A stretch of DNA of 64,000 nucleotides from Candidatus Dormibacteria bacterium (lineage in GTDB: Bacteria > Chloroflexota > Dormibacteria > Aeolococcales > Aeolococcaceae): assembly GCA_044450385.1 (NCBI GenBank), contig JBIOIZ010000004.1, positions 18,334 through 82,333 on the forward strand. The letters run 5' to 3'. How positions within the stretch are numbered: position 1 is the stretch's first letter; each line of letters opens with the position of its first letter. The translations under genes were made by a program, and so were the position numbers. Under the pieces are notes generated by a model. It was not told the DNA's origin and searched no databases. It saw only the letters and a list, made by a program, of their open reading frames with translations. Below, one piece after another: positions 9,977-35,611 of the stretch.

Positions 9977-9984
9977 CTCGTCGT

Positions 9985-11208: not shown

Positions 11209-11255
11209 GCTCCTAAGTGCGAACGCGGTTGTCTGATTGCTGAGAACGATCCATG

Positions 11256-14713: not shown

Positions 14714-15535
14714 TCAGGCACCTGTAGTCGGGTGTGGCGTCAATGAGCGCCCGCCCACGCCCAGATACGCTGCGATGACGTCTTCATGTTGACGGACGGA
14801 GTCCAACGGGCCGCGGGTGAGCACTTTCCCCTCCGCCATGACGACAACGTCGTCAGCGACGGTCGAAAGGAATTCCATGTTGTGCGCGATGAGCAGGATG
14901 GTCACGCCCTGCGCAACGATTTCCCGGATGCGCGTGGCGATGAGCCGGCTGGTCTCCGGGAACACCCCCGCCGTCGGCTCATCGAGCAGCAGCAGCTTCG
15001 GGTGCGCCAGCAACGCACGCGAGATCTCCATGAGGCGGCGCTGCCCCCCGCTCAACGTTCCCGCCGGCTTCTCCAGATGATCGCTCAATCCGAGCCAGTT
15101 GAGCAGGCTCTTCGCCTCCTCGCGATTGGCGTCTTCCTGCTGCGCCCAGGATCGGCGCCAGAACATCGCTTTCAGTGGGTTCTCCCCCTGCTGACCTTGC
15201 GCAGCCACCAGGACGTTCTCGAGAACCGTCAGGCGTGGCAGCACCCGAGCTGTCTGAAAGGTGCGGGCAATCCCCATCTGCGAGACGCGCGGAGGCCCCC
15301 ATCCCCTGGTGTCGACGCCTTGAAACAGAATGGCGCCGCGGTCCGGCGACAGGGTTCCGCTCAAAACTTCGATCAGGGTGGACTTCCCCGCGCCGTTGGG
15401 GCCGATGAGCCCGGTCACCGTGCCACGGTCGATGCTGAAGCTTGCGCCGTCGACCGCCTTGACGCCGCCGTATGCGAATTGCACGTCACGGATATCGAGG
15501 ATGACATCGCCTGCTGTCGCGAGAGACTCGGTCAC
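14714..15535 (-). CDS. livG: Branched-chain-amino-acid-type ABC transporter ATP-binding protein
   Basis: Walker A GPNGAGKST, LSGGQRR. ORF track runs to 15604; GTG 15535 overlaps the livM stop (GTGA) and is preferred. Confidence 0.92.
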   Translation of the reverse strand: MTESLATAGDVILDIRDVQFAYGGVKAVDGASFSIDRGTVTGLIGPNGAGKSTLIEVLSGTLSPDRGAILFQGVDTRGWGPPRVSQMGIARTFQTARVLPRLTVLENVLVAAQGQQGENPLKAMFWRRSWAQQEDANREEAKSLLNWLGLSDHLEKPAGTLSGGQRRLMEISRALLAHPKLLLLDEPTAGVFPETSRLIATRIREIVAQGVTILLIAHNMEFLSTVADDVVVMAEGKVLTRGPLDSVRQHEDVIAAYLGVGGRSLTPHPTTGA

Positions 15536-16518
15536 GGCGACTGTCGTCCCGGAAGCACACGCCTCCGTGCGGCCGACGCCGTCGTTCGATACCACTTCAA
15601 CCACCGCTCGGGGAAAAGGCCTTCAGGCCGGTAGCGGAGCACGAGAATCAGTGCGACCCCGATGATGATCGCCCTGATCGCTCCCGCATCGGCCTGGCTG
15701 CCGAAGGTGGGTGCATACCGTGACAACTCGGCCAGGCCCTCAATGACGACGAATGCCCCGAAGACGGCGCCCCAGTAGTTGCCGGAGCCGCCGATGATCA
15801 GGGCGGCTAGGAGGAAGAACGATTCCAGCGGAAGGAACGCGCTCGGGCTCCAGGCGGTGATGTAGAAGATGAAGAGTCCGCCGGCGATACCGGCCATGAA
15901 GCAGCCGATGACGAACACCCAGAGCTGAGGACGCCAGGACGCATGCCCGAACGCGGAGGTCACAGTCTCATCCTCGCGGATCGCCCGCAGCAGGCGGCCG
16001 AACGGCGATCGGAAGATGCGCATCGAGATGAAGACAAACAGCGCGAGGAGGATCGCCGCAACGAGCAGCACGATGAGTGAGTACTGCTCGGAGCTGACGT
16101 TGAGGTTGCCGGTGATCGCCGGAACGTTGAACAGGCCGGTCGCGCCATCAAACAGGGGTATGAAGCTGTTGATGACGTTGTACACGATGAATGCGGCCGA
16201 CACCGTCACGATCGCCAGGTAGTCACTGCGGAGACGCCGGACCGTGAAAGCGAAGACGACCGCGCCGGCCGCAGCGGCGACGACGCCACCGAGGAGCAGG
16301 CCGACGTACCACGGCAGCGTCCAGCCGAAGATATAACTGATACCCGGGAGAGTCGGAGGCCCCATGGTGGTGACACCGGCGATGTACGCGCCGATCGCGA
16401 CGTACATATAGAAGGCGAAGTTGAGGAGGCCGGTGTAGCCGTATTGGAGGTTGAGGCCCACCACCATGATGCTGACGATGCAGCCGAGGGCGAGCAGGTC
16501 GGTGAGGAAGAACAGCAT
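15532..16518 (-). CDS. livM: Liv-type ABC transporter permease
   Basis: 328-aa polytopic membrane protein in the LivM position; 1-nt stop/start overlap with livH. Confidence 0.9.
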   Translation of the reverse strand: MLFFLTDLLALGCIVSIMVVGLNLQYGYTGLLNFAFYMYVAIGAYIAGVTTMGPPTLPGISYIFGWTLPWYVGLLLGGVVAAAAGAVVFAFTVRRLRSDYLAIVTVSAAFIVYNVINSFIPLFDGATGLFNVPAITGNLNVSSEQYSLIVLLVAAILLALFVFISMRIFRSPFGRLLRAIREDETVTSAFGHASWRPQLWVFVIGCFMAGIAGGLFIFYITAWSPSAFLPLESFFLLAALIIGGSGNYWGAVFGAFVVIEGLAELSRYAPTFGSQADAGAIRAIIIGVALILVLRYRPEGLFPERWLKWYRTTASAARRRVLPGRQSP

Positions 16519-17357
16519 CAGCTCGTCTTCCCGGCTGCCGAGAACAGACCCTGTGGCCGGAAGAGGAGCAACACGATCACAAACCCGAAGGCGATCGATG
16601 TCTTGTACGCGGAGTCGACGTAGCTTCCGGACACCTCGGTGAGGATACCCACGACGAGGGCGCCGAGCATGGCGCCGTACGGGCGGCCGATTCCACCAAG
16701 GATCACGGCGCCGAAGATGACGAACAGCTCACTGAAGCCCGTGGTCGGGTCAAGGGTGCTCTCCTGCATGACAAGACCAACTCCCGCGACCGCGGTCAGG
16801 ATGCCCGCGATGAACCAGGTGATGCTGATGACCCGGTCGCTGTCGATCCCGCATGCCTTGGCAAGGTCCACGTTGTTCGAGGTTGCGCGGAGCGACTTGC
16901 CGAACTTCGTGTAGGTGAGCATTGCGTGCAGAAGGACCAACAGGGCGACAGCCGCGCCGATGGTGACGAGGTCACCAGGTGTGAGCACGAGCGGACCGAT
17001 GTGGAGTGCGTTGCCGAGGGTGACATTGAAGCGCACCGGCTCCGTGCCCCAGATGATGGTCATTCCGTTCTGCACGATGAAGGAAAGGCCGACCCCGGCG
17101 ATGAGAAGTGTGACGGGACGGACACGGCGGCGCATGAACGGCCGGAAGATCACGAAGTTGGAAACCACACCGAGGATGCCCGTCGCGATCCCGCCGATCA
17201 GCACGGCCAGGAAGAAGTTGACGCCCGAGTGGGCGACGGTCCATGCGATGTATGCCCCGAAGGTCATGAAGTCGCCGTAGGCGAAGTTGATGAAGTTGGT
17301 CACGCTGACCTGGAGTGACACGGCGACGGCCGCCAGCGCGAGAACTGACGCCGTCAC
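16518..17357 (-). CDS. livH: Liv-type ABC transporter permease
   Basis: ...NFINFAYGDF... LivH pattern. The annotated GTG start truncates a conserved-looking N-terminus (see findings). Confidence 0.85.
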   Translation of the reverse strand: MTASVLALAAVAVSLQVSVTNFINFAYGDFMTFGAYIAWTVAHSGVNFFLAVLIGGIATGILGVVSNFVIFRPFMRRRVRPVTLLIAGVGLSFIVQNGMTIIWGTEPVRFNVTLGNALHIGPLVLTPGDLVTIGAAVALLVLLHAMLTYTKFGKSLRATSNNVDLAKACGIDSDRVISITWFIAGILTAVAGVGLVMQESTLDPTTGFSELFVIFGAVILGGIGRPYGAMLGALVVGILTEVSGSYVDSAYKTSIAFGFVIVLLLFRPQGLFSAAGKTS

Positions 17358-17459
17358 CAGGCCAAATCCGACGGCCTCAATGAACTGACTGATCTGTGCG
17401 TCCTCCCGCAGCGGTGACGATGAGCCTGCTCACAACGGGGATGAAAGGCATGAAGCCTC

Positions 17460-18728
17460 TCATCCCGCGGCGAGCGCTTGCTGGATTGCCTGTGGGGTCA
17501 ACGCCTGGACGGAGCTCGAGGTCCCGTCCGCGTTGTAATGCAGGATGTCGAACGGTCCGTACACGTTGTGGTGTTGGTCGAAGTCGACGCTACTTGCCGC
17601 CCCTTCGTAATTGATGGACTTGCCGGACTTGAGCAGACCAAGACAGGTCGTGTAGTCGAAGCATTGCGTGCCGGGCCCGTTGGCCGCCTTGAGGATGCCC
17701 TGCTCGATCCCTGGTGAGCTGGTGGTCCCCGCGATCTGCGCTCCCAGCGCCCAGACGTTCACGGCGTCGTACATGTAGGTCTCGCCATTGCTCGGCTGGG
17801 TCGCGCCCGTGTACTGGGTGAGGGCGCTGAGGAAGCCGGGGTAGCCCTGGTTCTCAGTGCCCGAGTTCGCGATGTAGATCGGTCCTGAGGCGATCGCATT
17901 GCTGACGGAGGCGGTGAACTCGCTCGCGAACCAGAGGTTGCTCGCCACCCACGGCGTGCTCAGGAGACCTTCCTGCTTCAGCTCACCGAAGAGAACACCG
18001 GCGGACGGGATGTCGAACTGCGCGAGGATCGCCTGAGGCTGCTGGGAGAACAGCTGCTGGATCTCGCTGCGGAAGGAGGTCGACCCGACGGCGATGGTCA
18101 CCTGGTTGGTGATGGTCATGCCCAGCTTGGCAGCCGAGGCGACGATACCCGGAACGAGCGACTGATCGGCAGACTGATTCCCGATGGCGAGAGCCACCTT
18201 GTTCCAGCCCTTCTCGTGGGCGTACACGGTCATCGCGTCAGCCTGCTCGGTATCGGACGGCGACATCCGGAAGAATTGCGAGTTCGGGATCGCGTCGAAA
18301 GCCGCCCCGCCTCCCCACATCAGGTTGGGGATGTTCGCCTTCACCGCCAGCGGCAGCACTACGGAGTCGGTGAGCGACGTGGGGCCGACGATACCGGCGA
18401 CGTTGTCGGACTGGATCTCCTTCTGCGCCGCCGGCACCGCGTCACCGGGGTCGGCAGCGTCGTCCTGAACGTCCAGGTTCACCTTTCCGCCCAGCACGCC
18501 GCCGTCCTTGTTGATGATGTCGAGAGCGAGCTTCGCGCCGGTGACCATTCCCTGACCAACGTCGGCTCGGGCGCCGGTGAGCGGGCCGATCAGGCCGAGA
18601 AGGACCGGACTTGTGCTGCTCGGAGACGAGCCGCCCGAACCACCGCATGCGGCCAAGGCCAGCACGCCCAAGGTGATTGCGCCCGTTGCCAGTGTTGGCC
18701 TCACCCTAGCGATTGCCATATTCGTCAC
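17460..18728 (-). CDS. Liv-type ABC transporter substrate-binding lipoprotein
   Basis: Lipobox LALAAC/GGSGGS signal; periplasmic-binding-protein type I pattern; 422 aa. Confidence 0.9.
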   Translation of the reverse strand: MTNMAIARVRPTLATGAITLGVLALAACGGSGGSSPSSTSPVLLGLIGPLTGARADVGQGMVTGAKLALDIINKDGGVLGGKVNLDVQDDAADPGDAVPAAQKEIQSDNVAGIVGPTSLTDSVVLPLAVKANIPNLMWGGGAAFDAIPNSQFFRMSPSDTEQADAMTVYAHEKGWNKVALAIGNQSADQSLVPGIVASAAKLGMTITNQVTIAVGSTSFRSEIQQLFSQQPQAILAQFDIPSAGVLFGELKQEGLLSTPWVASNLWFASEFTASVSNAIASGPIYIANSGTENQGYPGFLSALTQYTGATQPSNGETYMYDAVNVWALGAQIAGTTSSPGIEQGILKAANGPGTQCFDYTTCLGLLKSGKSINYEGAASSVDFDQHHNVYGPFDILHYNADGTSSSVQALTPQAIQQALAAG

Positions 18729-18851: not shown

Positions 18852-18866
18852 AGAATAGGAAATAGG
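18852..18866 (-). promoter_or_regulatory. AT-rich heptad element, site b2: CCTATTTCCTATTCT (minus strand), overlapping spacer and -10
   Basis: Direct reading; second copy 33 nt downstream of site b1 on the same strand. Confidence 0.45.
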
Positions 18867-18880
18867 CAGCCCTCTGTCAA
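18852..18880 (-). promoter_or_regulatory. Sigma70-like promoter of the Liv-type operon: TTGACA-17 nt-TATTCT (minus strand)
   Basis: Read directly: -35 at 18880..18875 and -10 at 18857..18852, which predicts a ~115-nt leader. Confidence 0.5.
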
Positions 18881-18885: not shown

Positions 18886-18900
18886 AATATAGGATATAGG
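18886..18900 (-). promoter_or_regulatory. AT-rich heptad element, site b1: CCTATATCCTATATT (minus strand), just upstream of the -35
   Basis: Perfect tandem CCTATAT CCTATAT, read directly. Confidence 0.5.
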
Positions 18901-18951
18901 CGATGACCCATAGACAGGACGACTCAAAGCCACTCGGTGACCCGGGTGGGA

Positions 18952-18988: not shown

Positions 18989-19024
18989 CTGACAACCGTC
19001 CCGAGAACGCCTATATTATATGTG
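18989..19024 (+). promoter_or_regulatory. Promoter of the FAH-hyuAB operon (CTGACA-17 nt-TATATT), overlapping heptad site c (CCTATATTATATGTG, 19010..19024)
   Basis: -10 ends at 19017 and the GTG start is at 19027 with no Shine-Dalgarno sequence, so the mRNA is predicted to be leaderless or nearly so. Confidence 0.45.
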
Positions 19025-19026: not shown

Positions 19027-19896
19027 GTGAGGATAGCGAGATTCCGCCGCGACGGTGACTCACCGCGGACCGGGTTCGTGGTTGACGGCACGATCTTTCC
19101 CGCCGTCGGTGATGGTGCGAGCGCCGACCTGGCCACTTTGCTCGGGGACGGTGACAACCGGCTCGCCAGCATGGAGGAGGCAGCGCGTAGCGGACCCGGG
19201 TATTCGCTCGATGAAGTGTCGCTCGGGCCGCCACTCGAGAACCCGCGCGCCGTGCTGTGCGTTGGCCGGAACTATGCGGAGCACGCGGCCGAGACGCAGT
19301 CCGAGATTCCCACCGAGCCGATCATCTTCGCGAAGCTCTCCTCATCGATCATCGGTCCGCACGACGACATCGTGCTTCCCGCGGTCGCCCCACGCCGCAT
19401 CGACTATGAGTCCGAGTTGACGGTGGTCATCGGCCGGAAGGGACGCGACATCGCCGAGGAGGACGCCTGGGGTTTCGTTCGCGGCTACCTGGTCGCCAAC
19501 GACGTGACCGCAAGGGATTGGCAGTTGAAGAAACCCGCGGGGCAGTGGCTGCTCGGCAAGAGCTTCGACACATTCCTTCCCATCGGACCATTTCTGGTCA
19601 CGGCCGACGAGGTCCCCGACCCGACGCGACTCCATGTGACATGCAAGGTCAATGGGGAGGTGATGCAGGATGACACGCCGGATCACATGATCTTCTCCAT
19701 CCCGCATCTGATCGCCTACGTGTCCGCCGTCACGACACTGCATCCTGGCGATCTCATCCTCACAGGCACACCGGCGGGAATCGGTGCGTCGCGGGTTCCC
19801 CCGATCTGGCTCAAGCCAGGGGACATCGTGGAAACCTCGGTGGAGACGATCGGCACCCTCAGGAACACCGTGAGAGCGGCGGCTGCCCTTAAGTGA
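19027..19896 (+). CDS. Fumarylacetoacetate hydrolase (FAH) family protein
   Basis: VRIARFRRDG... N-terminus and ...FAKLSSSIIGPHDDIVLP...ESELTVVIGRKG...GDLILTGTPAGIG are typical FAH-family motifs. ORF track 18937 start is rejected because it runs through the promoter. Confidence 0.88.
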   Translation: MRIARFRRDGDSPRTGFVVDGTIFPAVGDGASADLATLLGDGDNRLASMEEAARSGPGYSLDEVSLGPPLENPRAVLCVGRNYAEHAAETQSEIPTEPIIFAKLSSSIIGPHDDIVLPAVAPRRIDYESELTVVIGRKGRDIAEEDAWGFVRGYLVANDVTARDWQLKKPAGQWLLGKSFDTFLPIGPFLVTADEVPDPTRLHVTCKVNGEVMQDDTPDHMIFSIPHLIAYVSAVTTLHPGDLILTGTPAGIGASRVPPIWLKPGDIVETSVETIGTLRNTVRAAAALK

Positions 19897-21947
19897 CCTG
19901 GCGCGTCGCTGTCGACATCGGCGGGACGTTCACCGATCTGGTGGCGTGGAACCAGGATGACGGCAGCATCGCGGAAAGCAAGGTGCTCACTGTCCCCGAC
20001 GACCCCGTGCAGGGGGTGGTCCGCGCGCTGGAGCACGCGGCGATCCCTCTCCCCGGCACCGTTGCGTTCATCCATGGGTCAACGATCGCCATCAACGCGG
20101 TGCTGCAGCAAACGGGGGTCACGACAGCATTGCTGACCACGCAGGGCTTCCGTGATGTCCTGGAGATGGGACGCAAGAACCGGCCGGATATGTACAACCT
20201 CTTCTTCAAGGCCCGGATGTGCCCCGTCCCGCGCACGTTGCGAGTCGAGGTTTCCGAGCGGCTCGATGCCCACGGGAACGAGATCCGGGAGCTCGACGAG
20301 GAAAGCCTCGTGGCGGCCATCAACGATCTGCCGGACGACGTCGAATCAGTTGCCATCTCATTCCTCCACTCCTATGTCGATCCGGCGCACGAGGTCGCTG
20401 CGGCAGAGCGGGTCCGTGCGCTGCGCCCGGACGTGTTCGTGTCGACCTCCGGCACGCTCTCACGCGAGATCGGTGAGTACGAGCGGACGTGCACAGTGGT
20501 GGTGAATGCCTATGTCGGACCGCTGGTCGCCGGATATCTGGAACGCCTCAAGCGACACCTCGAGGAACAGGACTGTTCGGCTCCGCTGCTCATCACCCAG
20601 TCCAACGGAGGAGTGATGACCTCAGCCGTCGCCGTGGTGCAACCAATTCGAACGCTCGAATCCGGACCGGCAGCAGGCGTGACGGGGGTGGCGCGCCTCG
20701 CGGACGGCCTGGGCACCGGTGACGCGATCGCATTCGACATGGGCGGCACCAGCGCCAAGGCATGTGTGATCAATCGGGGCGAACCAGAGGCGTCGACTGA
20801 GTATTTCATCGGCGGACGGCTCGAGGGCCTCCCTGTGCAGGTCCCGTTCCTGGACATCGTCGAAGTCGGCGCGGGGGGCGGCAGCATCGCCTATGTCGAT
20901 GCCGGCGGCGGGCTGTGCGTGGGTCCGCGGAGCGCCGGCTCGGTACCGGGGCCGGCCTCGTACGCTCTGGGTGGCGTCGAGCCGACGATCACCGACGCGA
21001 ATGTCGCCCTCGGCAGGATCGACCCCGACTACTTCCTCGGTGGCGAGATGCGCCTTGACGCTCAACTCGCGGTCGAGGCTCTGAGCCGTCTCGGCCGCGA
21101 GTTCGGCATGGACAGCTCGGAATGTGCGCTCGGCGTGGTGCGAATCGCGAACACGATCATGGCGTCCGCGATCAGGTCGATCACCCTCGAACGGGGTCGC
21201 GATCCACGCGATTTCACCCTGGTTGCTTACGGCGGCGCCGGAGCGGTGCACGCCGCGTCACTCGCCGCGGAGTTGCAGATCCCGGAGGTCATCGTGCCCG
21301 CGCGAGCCGGGACGTTCGCCGCCTTCGGCATGCTGGTCACCGATCTCCGCCATGATGTGGCACGAACCCGTCTCGGCCGCCTCGACAGCATCGACGATGC
21401 CGAGCTCAATGCCCAGTTCGCAGAGCTCGAAGCTGAAGCAACTCGGTACGTCTCCGATCAGTTCGTCGGCGACCAAGCGCCGCGGATGACCTACATCCGC
21501 AAGCTCGACCTTCGTTACGTGGGTCAGTTTCATCCACTGACGCTCACCGTGCCGGCACACGCTGGGAGCAACCTATCGGAGCACCTCCCCGATCTCTTCC
21601 ATCGTGCCCACGCCGAGCGGTACGGGCACAACGCACCGAAGGAACCCATCGAGGTGAGAGCCGTCCGCGTCAGTGCCATCTCCGAGGTGTCCAAGCCGGC
21701 ACCGGGCTCGGAGAGGAAAACACTGACGACCAGCGCCGTCGCTCACGGGCGGCGCCCGGTGCTCATGGACGACGGCAACTGGTATGACTGCGCGGTACAT
21801 CGCCGCCCCTCACTCTGCCCGGGGGCGGTCGTCGACGGCCCGGCGATCATCGAAGACCTTGCGACAACGGTGTTGATTCCCGCGCGCGACCGCGCGCAGG
21901 TCCTGCATGACGGCCACTTGCGCATTCGTCTGGGGGCGGCCGCATGA
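19893..21947 (+). CDS. hyuA: Hydantoinase A / oxoprolinase-type ATP-dependent enzyme, subunit A
   Basis: WRVAVDIGGTFTDLV N-terminus, 684 aa; GTGA overlap with the FAH gene. Confidence 0.9.
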   Translation: MTWRVAVDIGGTFTDLVAWNQDDGSIAESKVLTVPDDPVQGVVRALEHAAIPLPGTVAFIHGSTIAINAVLQQTGVTTALLTTQGFRDVLEMGRKNRPDMYNLFFKARMCPVPRTLRVEVSERLDAHGNEIRELDEESLVAAINDLPDDVESVAISFLHSYVDPAHEVAAAERVRALRPDVFVSTSGTLSREIGEYERTCTVVVNAYVGPLVAGYLERLKRHLEEQDCSAPLLITQSNGGVMTSAVAVVQPIRTLESGPAAGVTGVARLADGLGTGDAIAFDMGGTSAKACVINRGEPEASTEYFIGGRLEGLPVQVPFLDIVEVGAGGGSIAYVDAGGGLCVGPRSAGSVPGPASYALGGVEPTITDANVALGRIDPDYFLGGEMRLDAQLAVEALSRLGREFGMDSSECALGVVRIANTIMASAIRSITLERGRDPRDFTLVAYGGAGAVHAASLAAELQIPEVIVPARAGTFAAFGMLVTDLRHDVARTRLGRLDSIDDAELNAQFAELEAEATRYVSDQFVGDQAPRMTYIRKLDLRYVGQFHPLTLTVPAHAGSNLSEHLPDLFHRAHAERYGHNAPKEPIEVRAVRVSAISEVSKPAPGSERKTLTTSAVAHGRRPVLMDDGNWYDCAVHRRPSLCPGAVVDGPAIIEDLATTVLIPARDRAQVLHDGHLRIRLGAAA

Positions 21948-23710
21948 CCACAAGGGCAAGCCGCGTCGACGCGGTGACCACCGCAGTCATCCGGCACAGC
22001 CTCATCGCCACCGCGGACGAGATGATGAGCAACGTCAAGCGCGCCGCGTACAGCCCAAGCATCCATCAGATTCAGGACGTCTGCGTCGGGCTCGTCGACC
22101 CCGCCGGCAACATCCTCGCGTGCGCCCCGGGGCTCCCGATGTTCCTGGCGGACATGGGGGACGTCGTTCGAGATGGGATCGAACTGCTCGGCATCGACGC
22201 GTTCGAACCCGGTGACGTCTACATCAGCAACGACCCGTTCACCATCGGCACGCACATCAACAATGTCGCCACCTATTCGCCGATCTTCTCCGACGGACTC
22301 GTCGGCTTCGCGGTTGCGCGCGGACACATGGTGGACATGGGCGGCGCAGTCCCGGGCTCGCGTTCGAACCGGCTCACCGAGATCTACCAGGAAGGTCTTC
22401 GCATCCGTCAGCTGCGCTTCTACTCCAAGGGCACGCCGGAGGAGGCCATCCATCGATTGATCGCCGACAACACGCGGATGCCCGAAGAAGTTCTCGGCGA
22501 CCTGCGAGCTCAGGTGGCGGCCTGCCGCACCGGCGAGCGCAGGCTTGACGCGGTGGTCAAACGCTATGGTCGTGCTCAATTCGAGGAAGCGGCGGTCGCG
22601 ATCTTCGACCACGGCGAACGTCTCGCGCGCGCTGCGGTGCGCGAGATCGCGGATGGCACCTACCGAGCCGAGGCTTTCCTCGACGATGACGGGATCACGC
22701 TCGGCGAGCACATCGCGCTCCCAGTGGTCATCGAGGTGTCCGGCGATGAGATGACCATCGACTTCTCGGGATTTGCCGATCAAACGCGTGGATCGATCAA
22801 CACCGGGCTGACCGGCGCCATCTCGATCGCGCGCAACGCATTCAAGTGCCTGACGACGCCGCACGAACCCGTCAACGAGGGTCACTTCCGGCCGCTGCGC
22901 GTCGTCGTGACGCCGGGAAAGATTGTGAGCGCAACGCTGCCCGCGGCATGCGGCTGGTGGGCGCGAACCACGAGCACCACGCTGGACGTGATCCTCAAAG
23001 CACTGAGCCCAGCACTGCCGGACGCTATTCCGGCTGGACACTTCGGCGACATCCCCATGTGCCTCATTCAGGGTCGCGACCTGAACGACCGTCGCTTCGT
23101 CTTCTTCGAACCCGTACCCGGGGGACATGGCGGCCGGCCCCATGAGGACGGTGTGAGTGCCACGGTCTGCTTCCACGAAGGCGATACCCCGGACGTCCCG
23201 GTCGAGCTGCAGGAGTCGACGATCCCGATACTCGTCGAGGAATCGGCACTCGATATCGACAGCGCGGGCGCCGGGCTGCATCGCGGCGGCCTCGGCTACC
23301 GCAGGACGTTTCGCCTGCTCTCTGCGTCGGCATCGATGCAGATCAACGTCGACCGCCATGAGTGTCTTCCATGGGGACTCAACGGCGGCCTGCCCGGGCG
23401 ACCGAATCGCGCGTACATCCAGGCCGATCCCGGTGCCGATTGGGAGCTCGTGCTGAAGCGCGATGACATCCGCCTCAGCTCGAACGCGCGCGTTCAGCTC
23501 TTCGGTGGCGGTGGTGGTGGATGGGGCGATCCCCTCGACCGAGACGCATCGCGAGTGGTCGCCGACGTGCGAGACGGCTACATCAGCGCCGATGCTGCGT
23601 GGCGCGATTACGGCGTGCTGATCGACGAGTCGGGTCGCGCCGTCGACCCATCCGGCGAAACCGGCCGCAGCGGGGCGCGCATGCGCCGCCATGAGGAGAC
23701 AAGCGAATGA
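21944..23710 (+). CDS. hyuB: Hydantoinase B / oxoprolinase-type subunit B
   Basis: DAVTTAVIRHSLIATADEM...; 588 aa; ATGA overlaps on both sides. Confidence 0.9.
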   Translation: MTTRASRVDAVTTAVIRHSLIATADEMMSNVKRAAYSPSIHQIQDVCVGLVDPAGNILACAPGLPMFLADMGDVVRDGIELLGIDAFEPGDVYISNDPFTIGTHINNVATYSPIFSDGLVGFAVARGHMVDMGGAVPGSRSNRLTEIYQEGLRIRQLRFYSKGTPEEAIHRLIADNTRMPEEVLGDLRAQVAACRTGERRLDAVVKRYGRAQFEEAAVAIFDHGERLARAAVREIADGTYRAEAFLDDDGITLGEHIALPVVIEVSGDEMTIDFSGFADQTRGSINTGLTGAISIARNAFKCLTTPHEPVNEGHFRPLRVVVTPGKIVSATLPAACGWWARTTSTTLDVILKALSPALPDAIPAGHFGDIPMCLIQGRDLNDRRFVFFEPVPGGHGGRPHEDGVSATVCFHEGDTPDVPVELQESTIPILVEESALDIDSAGAGLHRGGLGYRRTFRLLSASASMQINVDRHECLPWGLNGGLPGRPNRAYIQADPGADWELVLKRDDIRLSSNARVQLFGGGGGGWGDPLDRDASRVVADVRDGYISADAAWRDYGVLIDESGRAVDPSGETGRSGARMRRHEETSE

Positions 23711-24975
23711 CCAGTACTTTGGCTGACGGTCGAAGCGGGCTGCTCGCGCACTTCCGGACGACCCAACAGGACGCGGTGCTCCGCGGCGACGCGACGCGCG
23801 CGCAGCTTCCTCTCCCCTACCTGCGGCAGCAGGCGCATCTCACCGCGCCGGCCTCCGGTTTCGCACTCGCCGAGAAGGCGCTGACCAACGCCCACGCGGT
23901 CTCCGCACGCTTGATGGACCGTTATGGCATCCAGGTCGAAGAGCTGGCAGGGCGTCTGGAGCTGGACGCGTCGGTGGTCTCCGCAGTTCTCGGAGGCCAC
24001 GGTGCGCCCGTGGTGCTGCTCGATCTCGAGGACGGCGTGGCGCCGAACATGATCGACGAAGCGCGCTCGAATGCCGTGAGGCTCCTTCGCGAAGTCGACC
24101 GTGGGTCAACACTGTGTTTCATACGTCCCGCCGGCATCGAAGACCCGCGGTGCGCGGATGACCTGTTCGACATCCTCCTGCGCGCCGGAGACGGACTCCC
24201 CTCGGAGTCGTATCCACTCGACGGAATCGTGATTCCGAAGATACGGCACGTCCACGAGTTGGAGTGGCTCGACACCGTGCTCTCGGCGATCGAGAATGAG
24301 CTCGGCTTGAGCAGGAATCGGATCCGCGTGAGCTTTCAGATCGAGACCGGCTGGGGTGTGCTCAATCTGCCGCAGCTCGCGATCGCGGGACGCGACCGGC
24401 TGGCGGGGATCATCCTCGGCACCGTGGATCTCAGCGCTGATCTTGGACTGCCACAGGTCCGGTATCGCCATCCCATCTGCGAGTGGGCACGGATGATCAT
24501 CGTTTCGGTCGCCGGTGCGGTGGGAGTCCCCGCGATCGACGGGATGACACTCGACTTCCCGGTGGGCCTTGCCGGCCTGAGTCCCGAGGAAAACCACGCC
24601 CTCGTGCTCGATCGCATGGTCGCGAACTTTGAGGATGCGCAGCATTCCATCGACGTCGGCATGAGTGGACGCTGGGCGGGGCACCCACTCCAACTCCTTT
24701 CCACCGAATTGGCATTCCGAGCCGCTTTCTCTCCGTCGGTCGTCGACGCGCTCGTGGCCGAGCTCGAGACGTTTCGTCGCGCCGGCGCTGACGATAAGGG
24801 CGCGGTCGCGGGCAACCGGGGAGAATTGCTCGACATCGGCACCGACCGGCACGTGCGCAGGCAGCTTCGTCGCGCGGCCGCATGGGGATACATCGCCCCG
24901 CAGCGAGCGGAAGAACTCGGACTCATCACAACGGCCGAGGCAGGCGACCTCCGTCAGCCCGTTGGGACGACATGA
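23707..24975 (+). CDS. CitE/HpcH-superfamily acyl-CoA lyase-like protein with a long N-terminal extension
   Basis: VVLLDLEDGVAP (CitE-type motif), ...IVIPKI..., ...SFQIET... . At 422 aa it is longer than the ~290 aa usual for CitE. Confidence 0.75.
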   Translation: MTSTLADGRSGLLAHFRTTQQDAVLRGDATRAQLPLPYLRQQAHLTAPASGFALAEKALTNAHAVSARLMDRYGIQVEELAGRLELDASVVSAVLGGHGAPVVLLDLEDGVAPNMIDEARSNAVRLLREVDRGSTLCFIRPAGIEDPRCADDLFDILLRAGDGLPSESYPLDGIVIPKIRHVHELEWLDTVLSAIENELGLSRNRIRVSFQIETGWGVLNLPQLAIAGRDRLAGIILGTVDLSADLGLPQVRYRHPICEWARMIIVSVAGAVGVPAIDGMTLDFPVGLAGLSPEENHALVLDRMVANFEDAQHSIDVGMSGRWAGHPLQLLSTELAFRAAFSPSVVDALVAELETFRRAGADDKGAVAGNRGELLDIGTDRHVRRQLRRAAAWGYIAPQRAEELGLITTAEAGDLRQPVGTT

Positions 24976-26177
24976 CAGCGGTTCCCGAGCTCCCACCTCT
25001 CGCCAACGTCAGGGTCCTGGACATCGCATCGTTCATGGCTGCGCCGATGACCGCGATGTGGCTCGGCGACTTTGGAGCTGACGTCATCAAGATCGAGCAT
25101 CCGGACGGCGATATGATGCGCGGATGGGGCAGCCTGAAGAACGGTGTGCCCCTCTTCTGGAAGATGGTCGCTCGCAACAAGCGATCGGTCACGCTCGACC
25201 TGCACAAGCCACAGGGGCAGGAAATGCTGCGGCGAATGGTCGCCAAGGCCGACGTACTGGTCGAGAACTTCAGACCCGGAACGCTCGAGCGATGGGGACT
25301 TGCCTACGACACCCTGCAGGAGCTCAATCCACGACTGGTGATGCTGAGCATCTCTGCGTTCGGGAAGACCGGGCGCTACAGTTCGCGCGCCGGATTCGGA
25401 ACGCTGGCCGAAGCGATGAGTGGCTACGCGCATGTCACCGGGCAGCCCGATGGGCCACCAACCCTGCCGTCGTTCGGGCTCGCCGACGCGGTGACCGGTC
25501 TCTGCGGCGCCTTCGCGGTCATGGTGGCACTGCACGAGCGTGACACGGTGAGTGGCAGGGGCCAAGCAATCGACCTCGGCATTTACGAGCCGATGCTCAC
25601 GATGCTCGGGCACCACTTCGTTGACTTCGATCAGCTGGGCATCGTCGCCGGACGGCTGGGCTCGCGGCTTCCGTTTGCGTCGCCTCGCAACGCGTTCAAG
25701 ACACAGGACGGTGACTGGGTCGCGATGTCCTGCAGCACGCAGAGCGTCTTCGTGAGAGCCTGTAACGCGATCGGTCGCCCCGAGCTCATCACCGACGTTC
25801 GCTATGTCAACAACCAGACGCGGACGGAGAACTCCGACACGCTGGATGCGGTGTTCGCTGACTGGATCAGCACCCATCCGACCGCCGATGTGCTCGCCAC
25901 CTTGAACGATGCCGGCGCAGCTGTCGCGCCGATCTACGATGTGCGTGGCGTCTTCGAGGACGACCACTTTCGCGATCGCGAGAGCATCGTCGCGGTGGAC
26001 GATCAGGACCTGGGTTCGGTACGGATGCAGAACGTCGTGCCGAAGCTCTCGCGCACCCCCGGTGGCATCCGCCATGCGGGCCCGCGCCTCGGCGAGCATA
26101 CGCGCGAGGTGTACTCGGACTGGCTCGGCATGACTGACGGCGAGCTCGCACAATTGACTGCCGAGGGCGTCATATGA
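24972..26177 (+). CDS. Family III CoA-transferase (CaiB/BaiF)
   Basis: LANVRVLDIASFMAAPMTAMWLGDFGADVIKIEHP. ATG 24972 overlaps the upstream stop (ATGA). Confidence 0.9.
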   Translation: MTAVPELPPLANVRVLDIASFMAAPMTAMWLGDFGADVIKIEHPDGDMMRGWGSLKNGVPLFWKMVARNKRSVTLDLHKPQGQEMLRRMVAKADVLVENFRPGTLERWGLAYDTLQELNPRLVMLSISAFGKTGRYSSRAGFGTLAEAMSGYAHVTGQPDGPPTLPSFGLADAVTGLCGAFAVMVALHERDTVSGRGQAIDLGIYEPMLTMLGHHFVDFDQLGIVAGRLGSRLPFASPRNAFKTQDGDWVAMSCSTQSVFVRACNAIGRPELITDVRYVNNQTRTENSDTLDAVFADWISTHPTADVLATLNDAGAAVAPIYDVRGVFEDDHFRDRESIVAVDDQDLGSVRMQNVVPKLSRTPGGIRHAGPRLGEHTREVYSDWLGMTDGELAQLTAEGVI

Positions 26178-26268: not shown

Positions 26269-27006
26269 ATGCCTGCTAAAGCGGCCGCGTCGAACCCGTC
26301 ACGCATGTCGCCGGATGGGCGCGGCCGCAAGCACCAACGCCGTCCACCGGAGACGGCCGGCGACTACGTGAGCAATGAGATCCGAGCGTGGATTCTCGAC
26401 GGGACGTTCGATCTCGGTTCGCGGCTCGATCAGCAGGTTCTCGCCGAACGCCTCGGAGTCAGCATCATTCCGGTCCGCGAGAGCCTGCGTCAGCTGGAAG
26501 CGGAGGGCCTCGTGGAGATCCTCCCGCGCCGCGGTGCGTTCGTCGCCAAGCTTTCGCTTCCACAGATCACGGAGATCAATCGCATCCGAGAACGCTTGGA
26601 GGAGCTCGCGCTTCGCCTCGCCGGTCCGCACTTTGAGGTGAGTCATCTCGAGAAAGCCGCCGAGCTCAATCGGCGGATGGCGATGATGCCGCTCGAAGGC
26701 CAGGCGCTGGCGTGGAGCGAGGTGAATCGCCAGTTCCACTTCACGTTATACGCGCCGTCCGATTCTCCGTTGCTGCTGCAGATGCTCAATACCCTCTGGG
26801 ATCGCATGCTGCTGTATCGCGAGGTCAATGCCGCCCGTGCTGATAATCGCGTCCATGCCGTCGACGAGCATGCGGAGATCCTGCGCAACGTCATGGCGGG
26901 TGACATCCCCGCGGCGGCGAGGTCGGTGCGCAGACACATCCGGCGGTCGGCGCGCGCTTTGTCGGTGAGCGAGCGTGCCGTTGCAGAAGACGGGAACCCG
27001 GCGTAG
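26269..27006 (+). CDS. GntR-family transcriptional regulator (FadR-like, FCD effector domain)
   Basis: LAERLGVSIIPVRESLRQLEAEGLVEILPRRGAFV wHTH plus an all-helical C-terminal domain. The start is uncertain (26269 or 26305). Confidence 0.88.
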   Translation: MPAKAAASNPSRMSPDGRGRKHQRRPPETAGDYVSNEIRAWILDGTFDLGSRLDQQVLAERLGVSIIPVRESLRQLEAEGLVEILPRRGAFVAKLSLPQITEINRIRERLEELALRLAGPHFEVSHLEKAAELNRRMAMMPLEGQALAWSEVNRQFHFTLYAPSDSPLLLQMLNTLWDRMLLYREVNAARADNRVHAVDEHAEILRNVMAGDIPAAARSVRRHIRRSARALSVSERAVAEDGNPA

Positions 27007-27032: not shown

Positions 27033-28430
27033 ATGACCAACGTTGACGTGCCGACGCTCGACTCTCGAGACGTCATGACCGGCGGCGATCGGCATGACGC
27101 CCTCGTCGATCAGATCCGTCTCTTCGCCACGACGGGCGCCGACGACCGGATTCCACGGTTGCTCGATCTCATGCTCGACGGCGTCGGGGTGGCGGTCGCG
27201 GGAAGAGCCGCGCACGCCGGGCGCGTTGCCGCGAGCGTCTTCGGCTCCGCTGCAACGCCATGGGATGCCGCCTGGCTGCACGGCATGCAGATGCACGCTC
27301 TCGACTTCGACGATACGCATGAGCCTTCGCTCTGCCACACCGCCACGGCATTGCTCCCAGGCTTGCTGGCACTGGGACGAGCACACCGGCGCAGCGGCCG
27401 TGACCTGCTCGATGCATACGACCTCGGCATTCGATTCGTCGACGTCGCCTCGGCCTGCGGTCCGGCGCTCAACACCGCCGGAGCACATTCCACTGCGATC
27501 CTCGGTGGCCTCGGTTCGGCCGCCGCCTGCGGCTGGCTGCTGACCCATGACGCTGACATGACCGCCGACGCCGTGGAAGCTGCAGCGTTGCTGGCCGCCG
27601 GACTCGGGGCAGCGTTCGGCAGTGACGGCAAGCCACTCCAGGCGGCGCGAGCTTCAGAGATCGGCGTCCGCGCCGCAACGTTCGTGGCGGCCGGGTTGAA
27701 CGCACCGCGTGGTGCGGCGTTCGGCGATCAGGGAGTGCTGGCACTGTGGCTCGGAGTCGATGCACCGACCACGGTGCGCTGGGGCGACGAATGCGCCGGA
27801 GCGGCAGGACTGGTCGCCATCAAGCCATATCCGTCGTGCTTCCTCACCCACTCCACCATCGACGGAACGCTCTCGCTGCGCAGGGCGTTGGATCTCCATG
27901 GGGCTGCCGACGTCAAGCGCATGAGCGTTGAAGTCCACCCCCTGGCGGCGCAGATCGCTGACAAGACGTCGCTCGGCGCCGAGAACGCCAAGTTCAGTCT
28001 TCGCTACTGTGCGCTCGCCGCCATGACGGATGGACGGGTGAATGTCGATACCTTCAGCACCGCAACGCAGCAGCGTCTGGCCGACGACGCCGGGTTGTTC
28101 GAGTCGTGGGTGAACAGGGTGGATGTGCGTACCGACCCGGCGGCACCGGCGCTGGCCGCTCGCATCAGCGTGCTGACGGCAGATGGACGTGAGCGCGCGA
28201 TCACCGTGGCGGCGCCACGCGGAAGCCGTTCCGAGCCGTTGACACGCGACGACGTGATCGCGAAATTTCGCGACAACGCTTCCGGCGAGTACGACGGCAC
28301 CTCCGTGCGGCGTCTTCTCGATGACGTCATGAAGATGCCCACGGCGCCCGACATCGCCGCACTCGAACTGTTGACAGCGGCATGCACAGCAGCGCCGTCA
28401 GCACTGTGGGGTGTGCATGGCAACGCCTGA
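27033..28430 (+). CDS. MmgE/PrpD-family protein (2-methylcitrate dehydratase family), paralog 1
   Basis: 465 aa; ...HALDFDDTH... motif typical of the PrpD family. Confidence 0.88.
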   Translation: MTNVDVPTLDSRDVMTGGDRHDALVDQIRLFATTGADDRIPRLLDLMLDGVGVAVAGRAAHAGRVAASVFGSAATPWDAAWLHGMQMHALDFDDTHEPSLCHTATALLPGLLALGRAHRRSGRDLLDAYDLGIRFVDVASACGPALNTAGAHSTAILGGLGSAAACGWLLTHDADMTADAVEAAALLAAGLGAAFGSDGKPLQAARASEIGVRAATFVAAGLNAPRGAAFGDQGVLALWLGVDAPTTVRWGDECAGAAGLVAIKPYPSCFLTHSTIDGTLSLRRALDLHGAADVKRMSVEVHPLAAQIADKTSLGAENAKFSLRYCALAAMTDGRVNVDTFSTATQQRLADDAGLFESWVNRVDVRTDPAAPALAARISVLTADGRERAITVAAPRGSRSEPLTRDDVIAKFRDNASGEYDGTSVRRLLDDVMKMPTAPDIAALELLTAACTAAPSALWGVHGNA

Positions 28431-29190
28431 AGAGTTGGATGCGGTTCGCGACCGGCTGCTCGGGCTGATCGACGAGAGTCGCATTCGCACGGTGCGTATT
28501 GCACGGCCGGCGCCCGAGGTCATCGCCCGATTCAGTCGGATCACCGACCTGACGTCGACCGTGTCGGACGCGATGGATGCGCTCGGCGTTGGATCGGCGA
28601 TCCCTGGGCATGTCCTCGTCCCGCTCGCACCGGGTCAGCGTATCTGCGGGCCTGCCGTGACGATTCGATACGCCGGCCGCGGTGGTACTCCCGGCGCGCA
28701 CTACGCGCGCGACAGCCGCCCGCTGCTCGCCGACCGTGATCTCTACGGTGTGGGTCAGGCCGGCGACGTGGCGGTGTTCGATGTCGGCGGAGCCGCCGGG
28801 ACATCGGTGATGGGCAACCTCTCTGCGCTCTGGGCCGTTCGCCTCGGCATCGCCGGCTGCATCGTCGACGGTGGGGTGCGCGACATCGCGTCGATACGCA
28901 CCACAGGTCCGCACGTATGGAGCCGTGGCCGCACGCCGATCACCGGCCGCCATCGAGTCGAAGCCGTCGAGATCAACGGCACGGTCGCCATCTGCGGCGC
29001 TCAGGTACGCCCTGGTGACCTCATCGCTGCCGACGACAGTGGCGTGTGTGTCGTCCCGTTCGAAAGCGTGGACGCAGTGATCGCCCACTGCGAGGCTGCG
29101 GAGCGCGCCGAGGATGCCGTCACGAACCTGATCAGGAGCGGTGCAGCGCCGGCGGACGTGACTAGGGCGTTGAGCCCCGAGCGCTGGTAA
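28417..29190 (+). CDS. RraA-like / HMG-CHA aldolase-oxaloacetate decarboxylase family protein
   Basis: ...GDVAVFDVGG...MGNLSALWAVRLGIAGCIVDGGVRD... matches the RraA/dimethylmenaquinone-methyltransferase fold family. Confidence 0.8.
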   Translation: MATPEELDAVRDRLLGLIDESRIRTVRIARPAPEVIARFSRITDLTSTVSDAMDALGVGSAIPGHVLVPLAPGQRICGPAVTIRYAGRGGTPGAHYARDSRPLLADRDLYGVGQAGDVAVFDVGGAAGTSVMGNLSALWAVRLGIAGCIVDGGVRDIASIRTTGPHVWSRGRTPITGRHRVEAVEINGTVAICGAQVRPGDLIAADDSGVCVVPFESVDAVIAHCEAAERAEDAVTNLIRSGAAPADVTRALSPERW

Positions 29191-30613
29191 GCAGGCTGAT
29201 CACCTGTCGGACATCACTCTGATGCTCGATGTCGAGGATCAGGTCGGCGGCACGCGACCCCGCCTCGGCGCCGATCCCACCAGCCTCGATGCATTCCATG
29301 AACTTCTCACGGACCTCGGCCTCAGACATGGGGTTCTGCGGGCTTCCCTTCCCGAAGGCAGCTCTCCCCTCGTATGCCGTGCCGTTGCGCAGGCGAATCC
29401 GCACGATGCTCGTCATGTTGTTGTAACCGGCGCCTTCGGCCTCGGGATCGACCTCGAACCTGACGCGCCGCGTCATCTCCCTGACGTCGTTCCGCATCAC
29501 GACCGCATCTGTGAACTCTGCCAGGCCTGCACGCCGCGCGATGCACAGGATGGCCATGCAGAACTCCATGCTGAACTTCGCCGCCAGGTGATCGTGCGGG
29601 TCATGGTGGATCAGCGCGTTGGGCATGTGGCGGTTGGTCCCGACCGAAACCTCCTCGATGTCGGCAGCCTGAATGTCGTGCTTCTTGAGGAGCTCCATGA
29701 GCGCGAACATCGCCGGATGCGTCAGCGAGCCCGACGGATGCGGCTTGATCGAAACACCCGGGGTATCGAACGTCCAGGGCGCGCCGGGAGTGAATGCTGA
29801 TGGCTCGTACCCTCCTCCCGCGGCGCTGAAGAAGCCCCGTCGTGACTCGAGGATGTTGTTCGCAGCAGTGAACCCACGCTGTGCCATCGACGCGGCGAGC
29901 AGACCGCTCTCCGCCGCCCGGCCGGCGTGGAACGGCTTGGTCATCGTGCCGAAGTTCTCGCGAAGACCCGCCGCCTGTGACGCCGCGATGCTCAGCGCGG
30001 CCCTCGTGGCGTCGGGGCTCAACCCCAGGATGGAGGCGGCCGCGGCGCCTGATCCGATCGTGCCGACGGTCCCGGTCGAATGGAAGCCGTCGTCGTAGTG
30101 ACGCGGGTTGATCGCTTCGGAGACCTTGGTTTCAACCTCGACTCCGACCACGTAGGCGAGCAGTACCTCGGCGCCGGTTCTTCCACCCGCCTCTCCGAGC
30201 GCAAGCGCCGTCGGCAACACGGGAGCGGTTGGGTGCGTCAAGAGGCCATACACGCGATCGGGCAGGGTGGCGAGTTGTGTGTCGTCGTAGTCATCCGCAT
30301 GAATCGCCAGACCGTTGAGGAACGCGGCAAATCGGGGGGGCACGCGCAGCGTCGTTCCCAGGGCTGCCGCGTCAGTAGTTGCGCACCGATATGAGCCCAC
30401 CTCGTCTCGAGCAATCTGCGCAGCCTCCGTCCGCGATCCTGCGACAGCGAGACCGAACCCGTCGAGCATGGAATGCTTCGCCGCTGCAAGCGCCGTGGGT
30501 GGCACGTCGGCAAGGCGCGTCCTGCTGATGAATACAGCGGCGTGCTCGGTGGCATCAGTCACGGGGCCGTCCTCCACTCGTTGTAGTCTCGCGTTCGTTG
30601 CCTCCTGGCTCAT
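29162..30613 (-). CDS. MmgE/PrpD-family protein, paralog 2
   Basis: ...GLAIHADDYDDT... . ATG 30613 (MSQEATN...) is preferred over ORF start 30679. The 3' end overlaps the RraA-like gene by 29 nt (convergent). Confidence 0.88.
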   Translation of the reverse strand: MSQEATNARLQRVEDGPVTDATEHAAVFISRTRLADVPPTALAAAKHSMLDGFGLAVAGSRTEAAQIARDEVGSYRCATTDAAALGTTLRVPPRFAAFLNGLAIHADDYDDTQLATLPDRVYGLLTHPTAPVLPTALALGEAGGRTGAEVLLAYVVGVEVETKVSEAINPRHYDDGFHSTGTVGTIGSGAAAASILGLSPDATRAALSIAASQAAGLRENFGTMTKPFHAGRAAESGLLAASMAQRGFTAANNILESRRGFFSAAGGGYEPSAFTPGAPWTFDTPGVSIKPHPSGSLTHPAMFALMELLKKHDIQAADIEEVSVGTNRHMPNALIHHDPHDHLAAKFSMEFCMAILCIARRAGLAEFTDAVVMRNDVREMTRRVRFEVDPEAEGAGYNNMTSIVRIRLRNGTAYEGRAAFGKGSPQNPMSEAEVREKFMECIEAGGIGAEAGSRAADLILDIEHQSDVRQVISLLTSARGSTP

Positions 30614-30682
30614 ACAGCCTCCGTCCCGACAGCTGTGACATGGTACGACCGGCATACTTCCGGGGCGCAATCGCCGCAACGT

Positions 30683-30699
30683 TTAATATAGGATATATT
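30683..30699 (-). promoter_or_regulatory. AT-rich heptad element, site d: AATATATCCTATATTAA (minus strand), between divergent PrpD paralogs
   Basis: Direct reading; abuts the start codon region of the plus-strand PrpD gene. Confidence 0.45.
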
Positions 30700-34207: not shown

Positions 34208-34252
34208 GGATCGTCCGTCGTACCCGTGCGCACCACGATAGGAGGAGAGTCC

Positions 34253-35605: not shown

Positions 35606-35611
35606 CGCGCT

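Follow-up and report, generated by a model that had tools for sequence, protein, structure and literature searches.

What would an operon consume that joins a hydantoinase-type enzyme to coenzyme A (CoA) transfer and CoA-ester cleavage, and by what route? This question is raised by a 64,000-nt stretch of a Candidatus Dormibacteria genome (contig JBIOIZ010000004.1; GC 65%), the whole of which we refer to as the window and whose numbering is used throughout. Five genes stand in it in the order FAH, HyuA, HyuB, an extended CitE-like lyase that we call xCitE, and a family III CoA-transferase. As judged from their sequences, these genes are translationally coupled and conserved together. Our preferred reading, to which we give a probability of about 0.4, is that they form an inducible catabolic operon in which a carboxylated cyclic amide would be opened in an ATP-dependent step, followed by CoA transfer, cleavage by the lyase and processing of an oxo-acid by the FAH protein.

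The operon matches no described pathway: all of its components belong to known superfamilies, and the wiring of HyuAB to a CoA-transferase and an extended lyase is a new combination. The initial annotation of this DNA had known of no characterised pathway with this gene set, and none emerged here. No equivalog cut-off in NCBIfam was reached by any of the five proteins, none of the solved structures assigns a function to them, and no paper was found that describes this gene combination or DUF6986, a domain matched weakly by xCitE.

A conserved unit of five overlapping genes

All five genes lie on the plus strand, and Pfam searches bore out the five family assignments that had been made initially. 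The first (19027-19896) encodes a FAH-family protein of 289 amino acids (aa) in the FAHD1/HpcE-like subgroup, with an Rv2993c-like N-terminal domain and a match to FAA_hydrolase (E-value 7e-75, 252 bits). HyuA (19893-21947, 684 aa), with the domains Hydant_A_N, Hydantoinase_A and Hydant_A_C, is the ATP-binding (ASKHA-type) subunit of the hydantoinase/oxoprolinase/caprolactamase family, and HyuB (21944-23710, 588 aa; Hydantoinase_B, 1e-153) is the metal- and substrate-binding subunit. They are followed by xCitE (23707-24975, 422 aa), an extended malyl-CoA-lyase-like CoA-ester lyase by its AF2 model and residue alignment, in which a HpcH_HpaI match is accompanied by weaker ones to DUF6986 and to the malate-synthase TIM barrel (MS_TIM-barrel). 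The last gene (24972-26177, 401 aa) encodes the family III CoA-transferase, labelled CoAT_B, which matches CoA_transf_3 over its full length (profile positions 1-366 of 366; 1e-122, 410 bits).

The gene order and the four 4-nt start/stop overlaps reported initially are correct in coordinates and letters. The listing of open reading frames (ORFs) and a check of the sequence place GTGA at the FAH/HyuA junction (19893-19896) and ATGA at the HyuA/HyuB (21944-21947), HyuB/xCitE (23707-23710) and xCitE/CoA-transferase (24972-24975) junctions. A longer FAH ORF from 18937 was dropped in favour of the GTG start at 19027, because from there the Rv2993c-like_N match starts with residue 1 and the length of the protein agrees with the 284-303 aa of homologues. 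Other 4-nt overlaps are common in the window (for example 11256-12548/12545-13969 and 6663-8081/8078-8629), and being frequent in such high-GC DNA they represent ordinary operon packing rather than a statistical oddity. Three of the four junctions keep the overlap both in a 68%-identical Dormibacteria locus and in a 55%-identical Solirubrobacterales locus.

A pattern scan over one genome per species returned 57 loci, every one of them in a metagenome-assembled genome (MAG); individual loci are cited below by L numbers. The top locus, on the complete Candidatus Dormibacteraeota chromosome OY970355.1, has 15 collinear genes with 91-99% protein identity, and its DNA is 92% identical to the window across 21 kb. 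The five-gene order, usually followed by a gene for a GntR/FCD regulator, is found in Dormibacterota (xCitE identity 63-93%; two of these MAGs carry the label Chloroflexi) and also, at 55% identity, in Solirubrobacterales (Actinomycetota). A homology search with HyuB gave 70 clusters at 64-97% identity, with the next only at 49%; on these identities the HyuB of the operon belongs to a discrete clade.

Metagenome contigs were scanned with HyuB, and the genes of the window were located in each fetched locus by tblastn. The resulting counts are approximate, as some contigs are duplicated between collections, and the downstream comparison covers loci with at least 1.5 kb downstream, a partner within 9 kb and a clade defined by HyuB identity of at least 65%. 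By this measure xCitE and/or the CoA-transferase lay near HyuB in 24 of 25 clade loci, mostly abutting it, compared with 1/33 where HyuB was of another clade. Upstream, FAH directly preceded HyuA/HyuB in 16/20 clade loci and in 1/36 of the others. The sole clade exception was a betaproteobacterial MAG in which HyuAB stands beside three other family III transferases, a MaoC-like protein and an acyl-CoA synthetase. A search for conserved gene neighbourhoods had been proposed in the initial annotation, which also envisaged that the flanking genes might prove unrelated in relatives; conservation is strong, spans two phyla and extends to the flanking genes.

Variant clusters show the system to be modular, with xCitE and the CoA-transferase as one core and FAH, with or without HyuAB, as a second. 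Locus L067 has FAH-xCitE-CoAT without HyuAB, divergent from a Liv-type ABC system, and L004 has LysR-xCitE-CoAT-MaoC hydratase-CoAT without FAH or HyuAB. In L066 the order is HyuA-HyuB-CoAT-CoAT-GntR-CoAT-MaoC, with xCitE-lactonase-RraA further along, and L075, L081 and L084 are similar. At L098:32-7662, on a metagenome contig of a Gram-negative proteobacterium bearing porin and TonB-receptor genes, FAH-HyuA-HyuB is followed by a CobW-family metallochaperone GTPase and an MFS transporter, with no CoA enzymes.

No cultured organism carrying the cluster was found in the collections searched. In the plasmid collection, the best HyuB match from cultured organisms was 44% identical (Neorhizobium) and stood in a creatinase-like context that did not reproduce the cluster. 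Among cultured organisms the closest analogue found is plasmid NZ_CP109267.1 of Streptomyces sp. NBC_01643 (L064), which might serve as an experimental surrogate; its HyuB is 41% identical, and it likewise does not reproduce the cluster. It has a small hypothetical gene upstream of HyuA, a divergent FAH-family gene with an AMP-binding gene, and crotonase and CaiB genes 6-7 kb off. Homologues of xCitE from Limnocylindria (Chloroflexota; L020-L060, ~40% identity) were rejected as examples of the system, since the partner genes are absent; these extended CitE-like proteins are probably a functionally different sister group. In one of these loci, L023, the protein (9893-11218) has an enolase-superfamily protein, DUF1638 and a GH65 glycosidase as neighbours.

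Predicted activities of the encoded proteins

HyuA contains the ATP motifs described for A subunits of the family (DxGGTxTD, DxGGT and GxxPGP; PMC8453981), as DIGGTFTD at residues 8-15, DMGGT at 282-286 and GSVPGP at 349-354. In these motifs and in its two-subunit type HyuAB resembles caprolactamase CapAB of P. jessenii (6YRA), OplAB, N-methylhydantoinase (7HK5/9H03) and eukaryotic 5-oxoprolinase. The 684 + 588 aa of HyuA and HyuB match the architecture of ~690 + ~580 aa without a gamma subunit. No gamma-subunit gene is present in the operon (the rest of the genome is not excluded), and since all junctions overlap, no small ORF can be hidden between the genes. The closest solved relatives of HyuB are a fused N-methylhydantoinase (7hk5, 1.5e-86) and CapB (6yra_B, 1.6e-60), compared with ~1e-23 for the subunits of acetone and acetophenone carboxylases. 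Those carboxylases (5M45, 5SVB, 5L9W) belong to the same superfamily and have the same type of ATP-binding subunit. However, the operon lacks their gamma subunit, and HyuB lacks the N- and C-terminal extensions with which their 684-776-aa counterparts touch it. Scores on the NCBIfam equivalogs for CapA and CapB (NF050156, NF050157) were 485 bits for HyuA and 246 bits for HyuB against a cut-off of 1000, and the ApcD model of acetophenone carboxylase scored 99 bits against a cut-off of 1500. Of the checks suggested initially, that for a gamma subunit found none in the operon, and by NCBIfam and PDB scores HyuAB falls outside both the caprolactamase and the carboxylase groups.

The putative metal tetrad of HyuB, D45/H104/N107/H128, is present in 70/70 clade members. 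Of the metal site of CapAB-type enzymes it would keep Asp-His-x-His, with Asn in the place of the third ligand. This substitution was tried as a clade marker and dropped, as neighbouring clades share it; the related HyuB clades that were retrieved mostly have Asn here too, one of them 46% identical and found beside creatinase/M24-like genes. When the hydrophobic caprolactam pocket of CapB was mapped onto HyuB through a HMMER alignment, CapB Tyr136 corresponded to Arg140 (68/68 in the clade; G, K or W outside) and Thr336 to Arg341 (61/68 in the clade; mostly Ile outside). Because these arginines are clade-specific and occupy pocket-equivalent positions, the pocket is predicted to be cationic, which suggests that HyuB takes an anionic, carboxylated substrate. 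A further difference from the CapAB type is that the obligatory genomic partners of this HyuAB are a CoA-transferase and a malyl-CoA-lyase-like enzyme.

The AF2 model of xCitE is confident (pLDDT 90.6) and consists of a TIM barrel with a C-terminal lid. In Foldseek searches the best matches were malyl-CoA lyases (MCLs; 4l9y and 5ugr, E ~1e-16, target-normalised TM ~0.8), with a top group made up of the MCLs of Rhodobacter, Methylobacterium, Chloroflexus and Roseiflexus, followed by human CLYBL and then by haloarchaeal malate synthase. Residues E108, D109, R140, E213, D241 and D376 align to E44, D45, R76, E141, D168 and D299 of R. sphaeroides MCL. By this alignment E108/D109 would be the water-binding pair, R140 catalytic, E213/D241 the Mg ligands and D376 the lid residue. 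All six catalytic and Mg residues are invariant in 22 homologues, and at the lid position xCitE has Asp, where enzymes of the malyl-CoA thioesterase group typically have Glu. From model and alignment, xCitE is a predicted Mg-dependent malyl-CoA-lyase-like enzyme with a complete catalytic set. The initial name of CitE-like lyase was right as to superfamily and extension, and structure and residues now make it more precisely malyl-CoA-lyase-like.

With the lyases for malyl-CoA, beta-methylmalyl-CoA and citramalyl-CoA (4L9Y, 5UGR, 4L80, 6KIN) xCitE shares barrel, lid and the six residues, and like MCL with its succinyl-CoA:malate CoA-transferase it is paired with a family III CoA-transferase. However, identity to this group is 18-24%, and xCitE adds an N-terminal extension of ~95 aa that is well predicted and strongly conserved (invariant L34, P35, R40, Q41, Q42 and H44, among others). 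NCBIfam models for haloarchaeal malyl-CoA lyase, RipC/Ccl and CitE gave 68, 58 and 52 bits, under their cut-offs of 500, 375 and 443. Members of this family are rare: 42 of 1.84 billion cluster representatives match at E<=1e-30, and the 50% cluster of xCitE itself has a single representative. No extended xCitE was found in 72,556 plasmids, which held only short canonical CoA-ester lyases at <=34% identity that leave the N-terminal extension uncovered.

Succinate-hydroxymethylglutarate CoA-transferase (9br7, 4e-59) is the best PDB match of the CoA-transferase, which scored ~245 bits, under the cut-offs, on the NCBIfam models for succinate-glutarate and succinyl-CoA:mesaconate transferases. By sequence comparison it is closest to the dicarboxylate:succinyl-CoA transferases. 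D172, within GLADAVTG, is at the position expected from an alignment with YfdW/Frc, and we take it to be the catalytic Asp.

The FAH protein has top PDB matches spanning 1e-51 to 1e-56, the nearest being L-2,4-diketo-3-deoxyrhamnonate hydrolase (8gsr, 9e-56), HpcE/HpaG and FAHD1-type enzymes, and a best NCBIfam score of 219 bits against a cut-off of 500. With the FAHD1/HpcE/L-2,4-diketo-3-deoxyrhamnonate hydrolase subgroup it shares a full-length domain and the motifs NYxxHxxE and ExE, found here as NYAEHAAE at 82-89 and ESE at 128-130 (E128-x-E130), together with D159 and K178. E128, E130, D159 and the His/Glu pair are presumably the metal-binding acidic and His/Glu residues. Hydrolase, decarboxylase and isomerase activities of FAH proteins are indistinguishable by sequence. 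The NCBIfam model NF009399 (501 aa) matches the FAH protein at positions 18-212 and, at 271-475, the product of an RraA-like gene further downstream in the window (28411-29190); since one model spans both, natural FAH-RraA fusions and a functional link are suggested. In L076 and L077, which are without FAH, an RraA-like gene is divergent from HyuA.

Promoters, transport and neighbouring genes

A 300-nt intergenic region separates the operon from a divergent transporter. On the plus strand a sigma-70-like sequence pattern (CTGACA-17-TATATT, 18989-19017) ends 10 nt before the GTG start of FAH, so that the operon's own promoter, as claimed initially, is at least predicted. On the minus strand lies a promoter-like pattern, TTGACA-17-TATTCT (18880-18852), which is overlapped by two direct copies of ATAnnAnATAGGC on the plus strand (18855-18867 and 18889-18901). 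A third, inverted copy, read on the plus strand as GCCTATATTATAT (19009-19021), lies over the -10 element of the operon and ends ~6 nt before the GTG. The divergent region with its three copies is kept in the close relatives L001, L006 and L007, and a TATA..TATA element within ~10 nt of the FAH start is found also in the distant loci L003, L008, L013 and L067, including Solirubrobacterales. As a -10-like box lies only 10 nt from the start codon, the mRNA may be leaderless or nearly so, and the FAH-proximal TATA element may be the -10 box of such a transcript. The ATAnnAnATAGGC copies are a candidate operator for a GntR/FCD-family regulator encoded just downstream of the operon (26269-27006, +), a gene that follows the CoA-transferase in almost all related loci. 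The operon is probably inducible and controlled by this regulator. An Rfam scan of the whole window found no riboswitch or other RNA family.

The divergent genes (14012-18728, -) encode a Liv-type ABC importer with a binding protein (17460-18728), two permeases and two ATPases, the last gene of the set lying at 14012-14713, and are arranged as described initially. The accompanying idea that this importer brings in the substrate fared less well: the importer is there, and its linkage to the operon is restricted to the closest Dormibacterota relatives and L067. Its binding protein has weak PDB matches of Leu/Ile/Val type and of amide/aromatic-acid type (best 1e-13), which give no clue to the ligand. 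The transporter operon ends in a gene for a TcuA-like FAD-dependent dehydrogenase (12545-13969, -) resembling tricarballylate dehydrogenase (NF006130, 168 bits against a cut-off of 369), and a 48%-identical homologue is divergent from FAH in the Solirubrobacterales loci L013 and L065.

Downstream of the regulator, genes for an MmgE/PrpD-family protein (27033-28430, +) and an RraA-like aldolase/decarboxylase (28411-29190, +) overlap by 20 nt. Both recur close to the cluster in many relatives and are probably part of one catabolic unit with the operon. The unit of five genes proposed initially is accordingly correct as to its five coupled members and too small as a whole, as the GntR/FCD, PrpD-family, RraA-like and TcuA-like genes and a second CoA-ester module recur nearby. 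Beyond the RraA-like gene come two more PrpD paralogues, DUF6282, Iso_dh, an HMGL-like gene, further Iso_dh genes and a gene of the PEP-mutase/isocitrate-lyase family. The stretch 27033-38902 as a whole is a paralogue-rich organic-acid island with three MmgE/PrpD and three Iso_dh genes, in which no NCBIfam equivalog cut-off was reached where tested.

The second module, on the plus strand, comprises a short CitE-like lyase (3105-3905), a MaoC/mesaconyl-CoA hydratase-like protein (3908-4435), a Mct-like CoA-transferase (4371-5639; TIGR04253, 462 bits against a cut-off of 725) and a dicarboxylate CoA-transferase labelled CoAT_A (6663-8081). In L003, L008 and L074 their orthologues are immediate neighbours of the five-gene cluster, and in L004 and L066 the two sets of genes are interspersed. 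In the window an AtuA gene (1577-3028, -) and an IclR regulator (372-1235) precede the module. A citrate synthase (41175-42461, -) and a B12-binding radical SAM protein (44764-46164) have no evident link to the operon. CoA-ester metabolism of branched C5/C6 di- and tricarboxylates is the theme of the region, and the route discussed below is placed within it because of the PrpD-like, RraA-like, TcuA-like and lyase-hydratase-CoA-transferase neighbours.

A proposed route and its alternatives

In the route that we propose, HyuAB would spend ATP on opening a thermodynamically stable cyclic amide (a lactam or imide with a 5- or 6-membered ring) bearing one or more carboxylates, giving an acyclic substituted C4-C6 dicarboxylate. 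The CoA-transferase would convert the opened product, or a hydroxy-acid derivative of it, to a CoA thioester. By retro-Claisen/aldol cleavage of a 3-hydroxyacyl-CoA, xCitE would yield acetyl- or propionyl-CoA and a 2-oxo acid of the glyoxylate, pyruvate or oxaloacetate type, and FAH would decarboxylate, tautomerise or hydrolyse a 2-oxo or 2,4-dioxo acid on the way to pyruvate. Both the order of the reactions and the lactam or imide substrate are what we infer from the gene set.

We favour a hydrolase role for HyuAB because of its subunit architecture and relative similarity scores, and IaaCE in indoleacetate catabolism provides a precedent. This HyuAB-like enzyme belongs to an anaerobic indoleacetate catabolic cluster of Aromatoleum/Azoarcus, and lactam opening of 2-oxoindoleacetate has been proposed for it (PMC8453981). 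Compared by description, the operon differs from that cluster in having no molybdenum hydroxylase, B12 mutase or beta-oxidation genes and in ending in a CitE-type lyase and a FAH enzyme. In the indoleacetate pathway a family III CoA-transferase takes the product of IaaCE, a substituted succinate, onward in CoA-thioester form. The later steps can be compared with the Ict-Ich-Ccl route for itaconate (RipABC; P. aeruginosa PA0878-0883, M. tuberculosis Rv2498c), in which a transferase and a CitE-like lyase likewise occur and give acetyl-CoA and pyruvate. PrpD-family genes are near our operon and presumably also near the itaconate cluster of Pseudomonas. However, none of the five genes encodes a hydratase; a MaoC hydratase is encoded 15 kb upstream, as part of the separate and more canonical lyase-hydratase-transferase set at 3105-8081.

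Several observations weigh against lactam opening as the entry step. The operon contains no amidase, aminotransferase or deaminase to account for the nitrogen once the ring is open. The third metal ligand of HyuB is Asn107 in place of an Asp described as fully conserved (PMC8453981, the caprolactamase paper), and the pocket mapping is one pairwise alignment, of identity not computed, to a 581-aa structure. The cluster with FAH and HyuAB and no CoA enzymes (L098) raises the possibility that these proteins are self-contained, with a chemistry outside the scheme. The type of transporter varies, other loci having NMT1-type ABC, MFS or TctC systems, and in the collections searched no member of the HyuB or xCitE clades came from a cultured organism.

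The genes might instead be part of a wider CoA-ester network of C5 dicarboxylates (malyl-, beta-methylmalyl-, mesaconyl- and citramalyl-CoA), of the kind known from the 3-hydroxypropionate bi-cycle, the ethylmalonyl-CoA pathway or the methylaspartate cycle, rather than a dedicated route for an imported ring compound. In such a network xCitE and the CoA-transferase would interconvert glyoxylate, pyruvate and acyl-CoA, with HyuAB and FAH supplying or removing one intermediate. The malyl-CoA lyases of those pathways are the nearest relatives of xCitE, and a Mct-like transferase, a mesaconyl-CoA-hydratase-like protein and a second lyase are present in the window and adjacent to the cluster in L003, L008, L074, L004 and L066. 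However, every score is under its equivalog cut-off, the local GntR/FCD regulator and transporters are typical of substrate-induced catabolism, and a HyuAB enzyme is not known to take part in any of those cycles; we regard this explanation as unlikely. A further alternative, which we hold to be distinctly unlikely, makes HyuAB a biotin-independent ATP-dependent carboxylase or enol-phosphorylating enzyme that acts on a ketone or oxo-acid in the manner of acetone carboxylase, its beta-keto or oxo-dicarboxylate product being processed by the CoA-transferase, lyase and FAH. The problem of nitrogen disposal would vanish, FAH enzymes do work on beta-keto and 2,4-dioxo acids, and the pocket arginines would suit an oxo-acid too. 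The family includes acetone and acetophenone carboxylases, and caprolactamase activity also requires bicarbonate (PMC8453981). What speaks against a carboxylase is that the operon has no gamma gene and its overlapping junctions leave no room for one, that HyuB has 588 aa compared with 684-776 aa, and that its PDB and NCBIfam scores on carboxylases are far below those on hydrolases.

If CoA transfer came first, HyuAB would act on a CoA thioester, opening the ring of an acyl-CoA or phosphorylating it in an ATP-dependent reaction. This would fit the observation that no neighbour of the HyuB clade is more constant than the CoA-transferase or an AMP-binding acyl-CoA synthetase, that L066, L075, L081 and L084 have the CoA-transferase straight after HyuB with no xCitE between, and that AMP-binding genes stand beside HyuAB in L068 and on the Streptomyces plasmid. 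We consider it improbable, as we know of no HyuA/HyuB family member that uses a CoA ester. There is none in the family review of PMC8453981, and CapB has a small pocket of 66 cubic angstroms. Least credible of all is a housekeeping 5-oxoprolinase placed by chance next to unrelated organic-acid genes: although the best solved homologue is a fused enzyme with oxoprolinase/N-methylhydantoinase architecture, the gene order with its overlapping junctions is kept across two phyla, the association with partners is specific to the clade (24/25 against 1/33), and neither glutamate-related genes nor an equivalog match was found. It is also conceivable, as a long shot, that the HyuAB clade is not a lactamase and would instead be a new ATP-dependent enzyme on a carboxylated non-amide, for example one that carboxylates an oxo-dicarboxylate, or the CoA ester of one, without biotin, or phosphorylates its enol. 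With xCitE and the CoA-transferases it would then constitute a previously unknown C-C route in Dormibacterota and Solirubrobacterales, in which the CoA-dependent making or breaking of C-C bonds would possibly be tied to glyoxylate or C5-dicarboxylate assimilation.

HyuA and HyuB are routinely annotated as "N-methylhydantoinase" or "oxoprolinase" in soil metagenomes, and few of their substrates are known. The delimited HyuB clade gives a testable hypothesis, that of a new ATP-dependent entry step into CoA-ester cleavage, and the regulator, the candidate operator and the binding protein are direct experimental handles on the ligand. Knowing the substrate would also provide new biocatalysts for the opening of lactams or imides. 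Little is known of the heterotrophic substrates of Dormibacterota and Solirubrobacterales, the uncultured soil lineages in which the operon is found, and with the compound identified a further pathway could be assigned to the turnover of carbon, and possibly of nitrogen, in soils including peat and permafrost.

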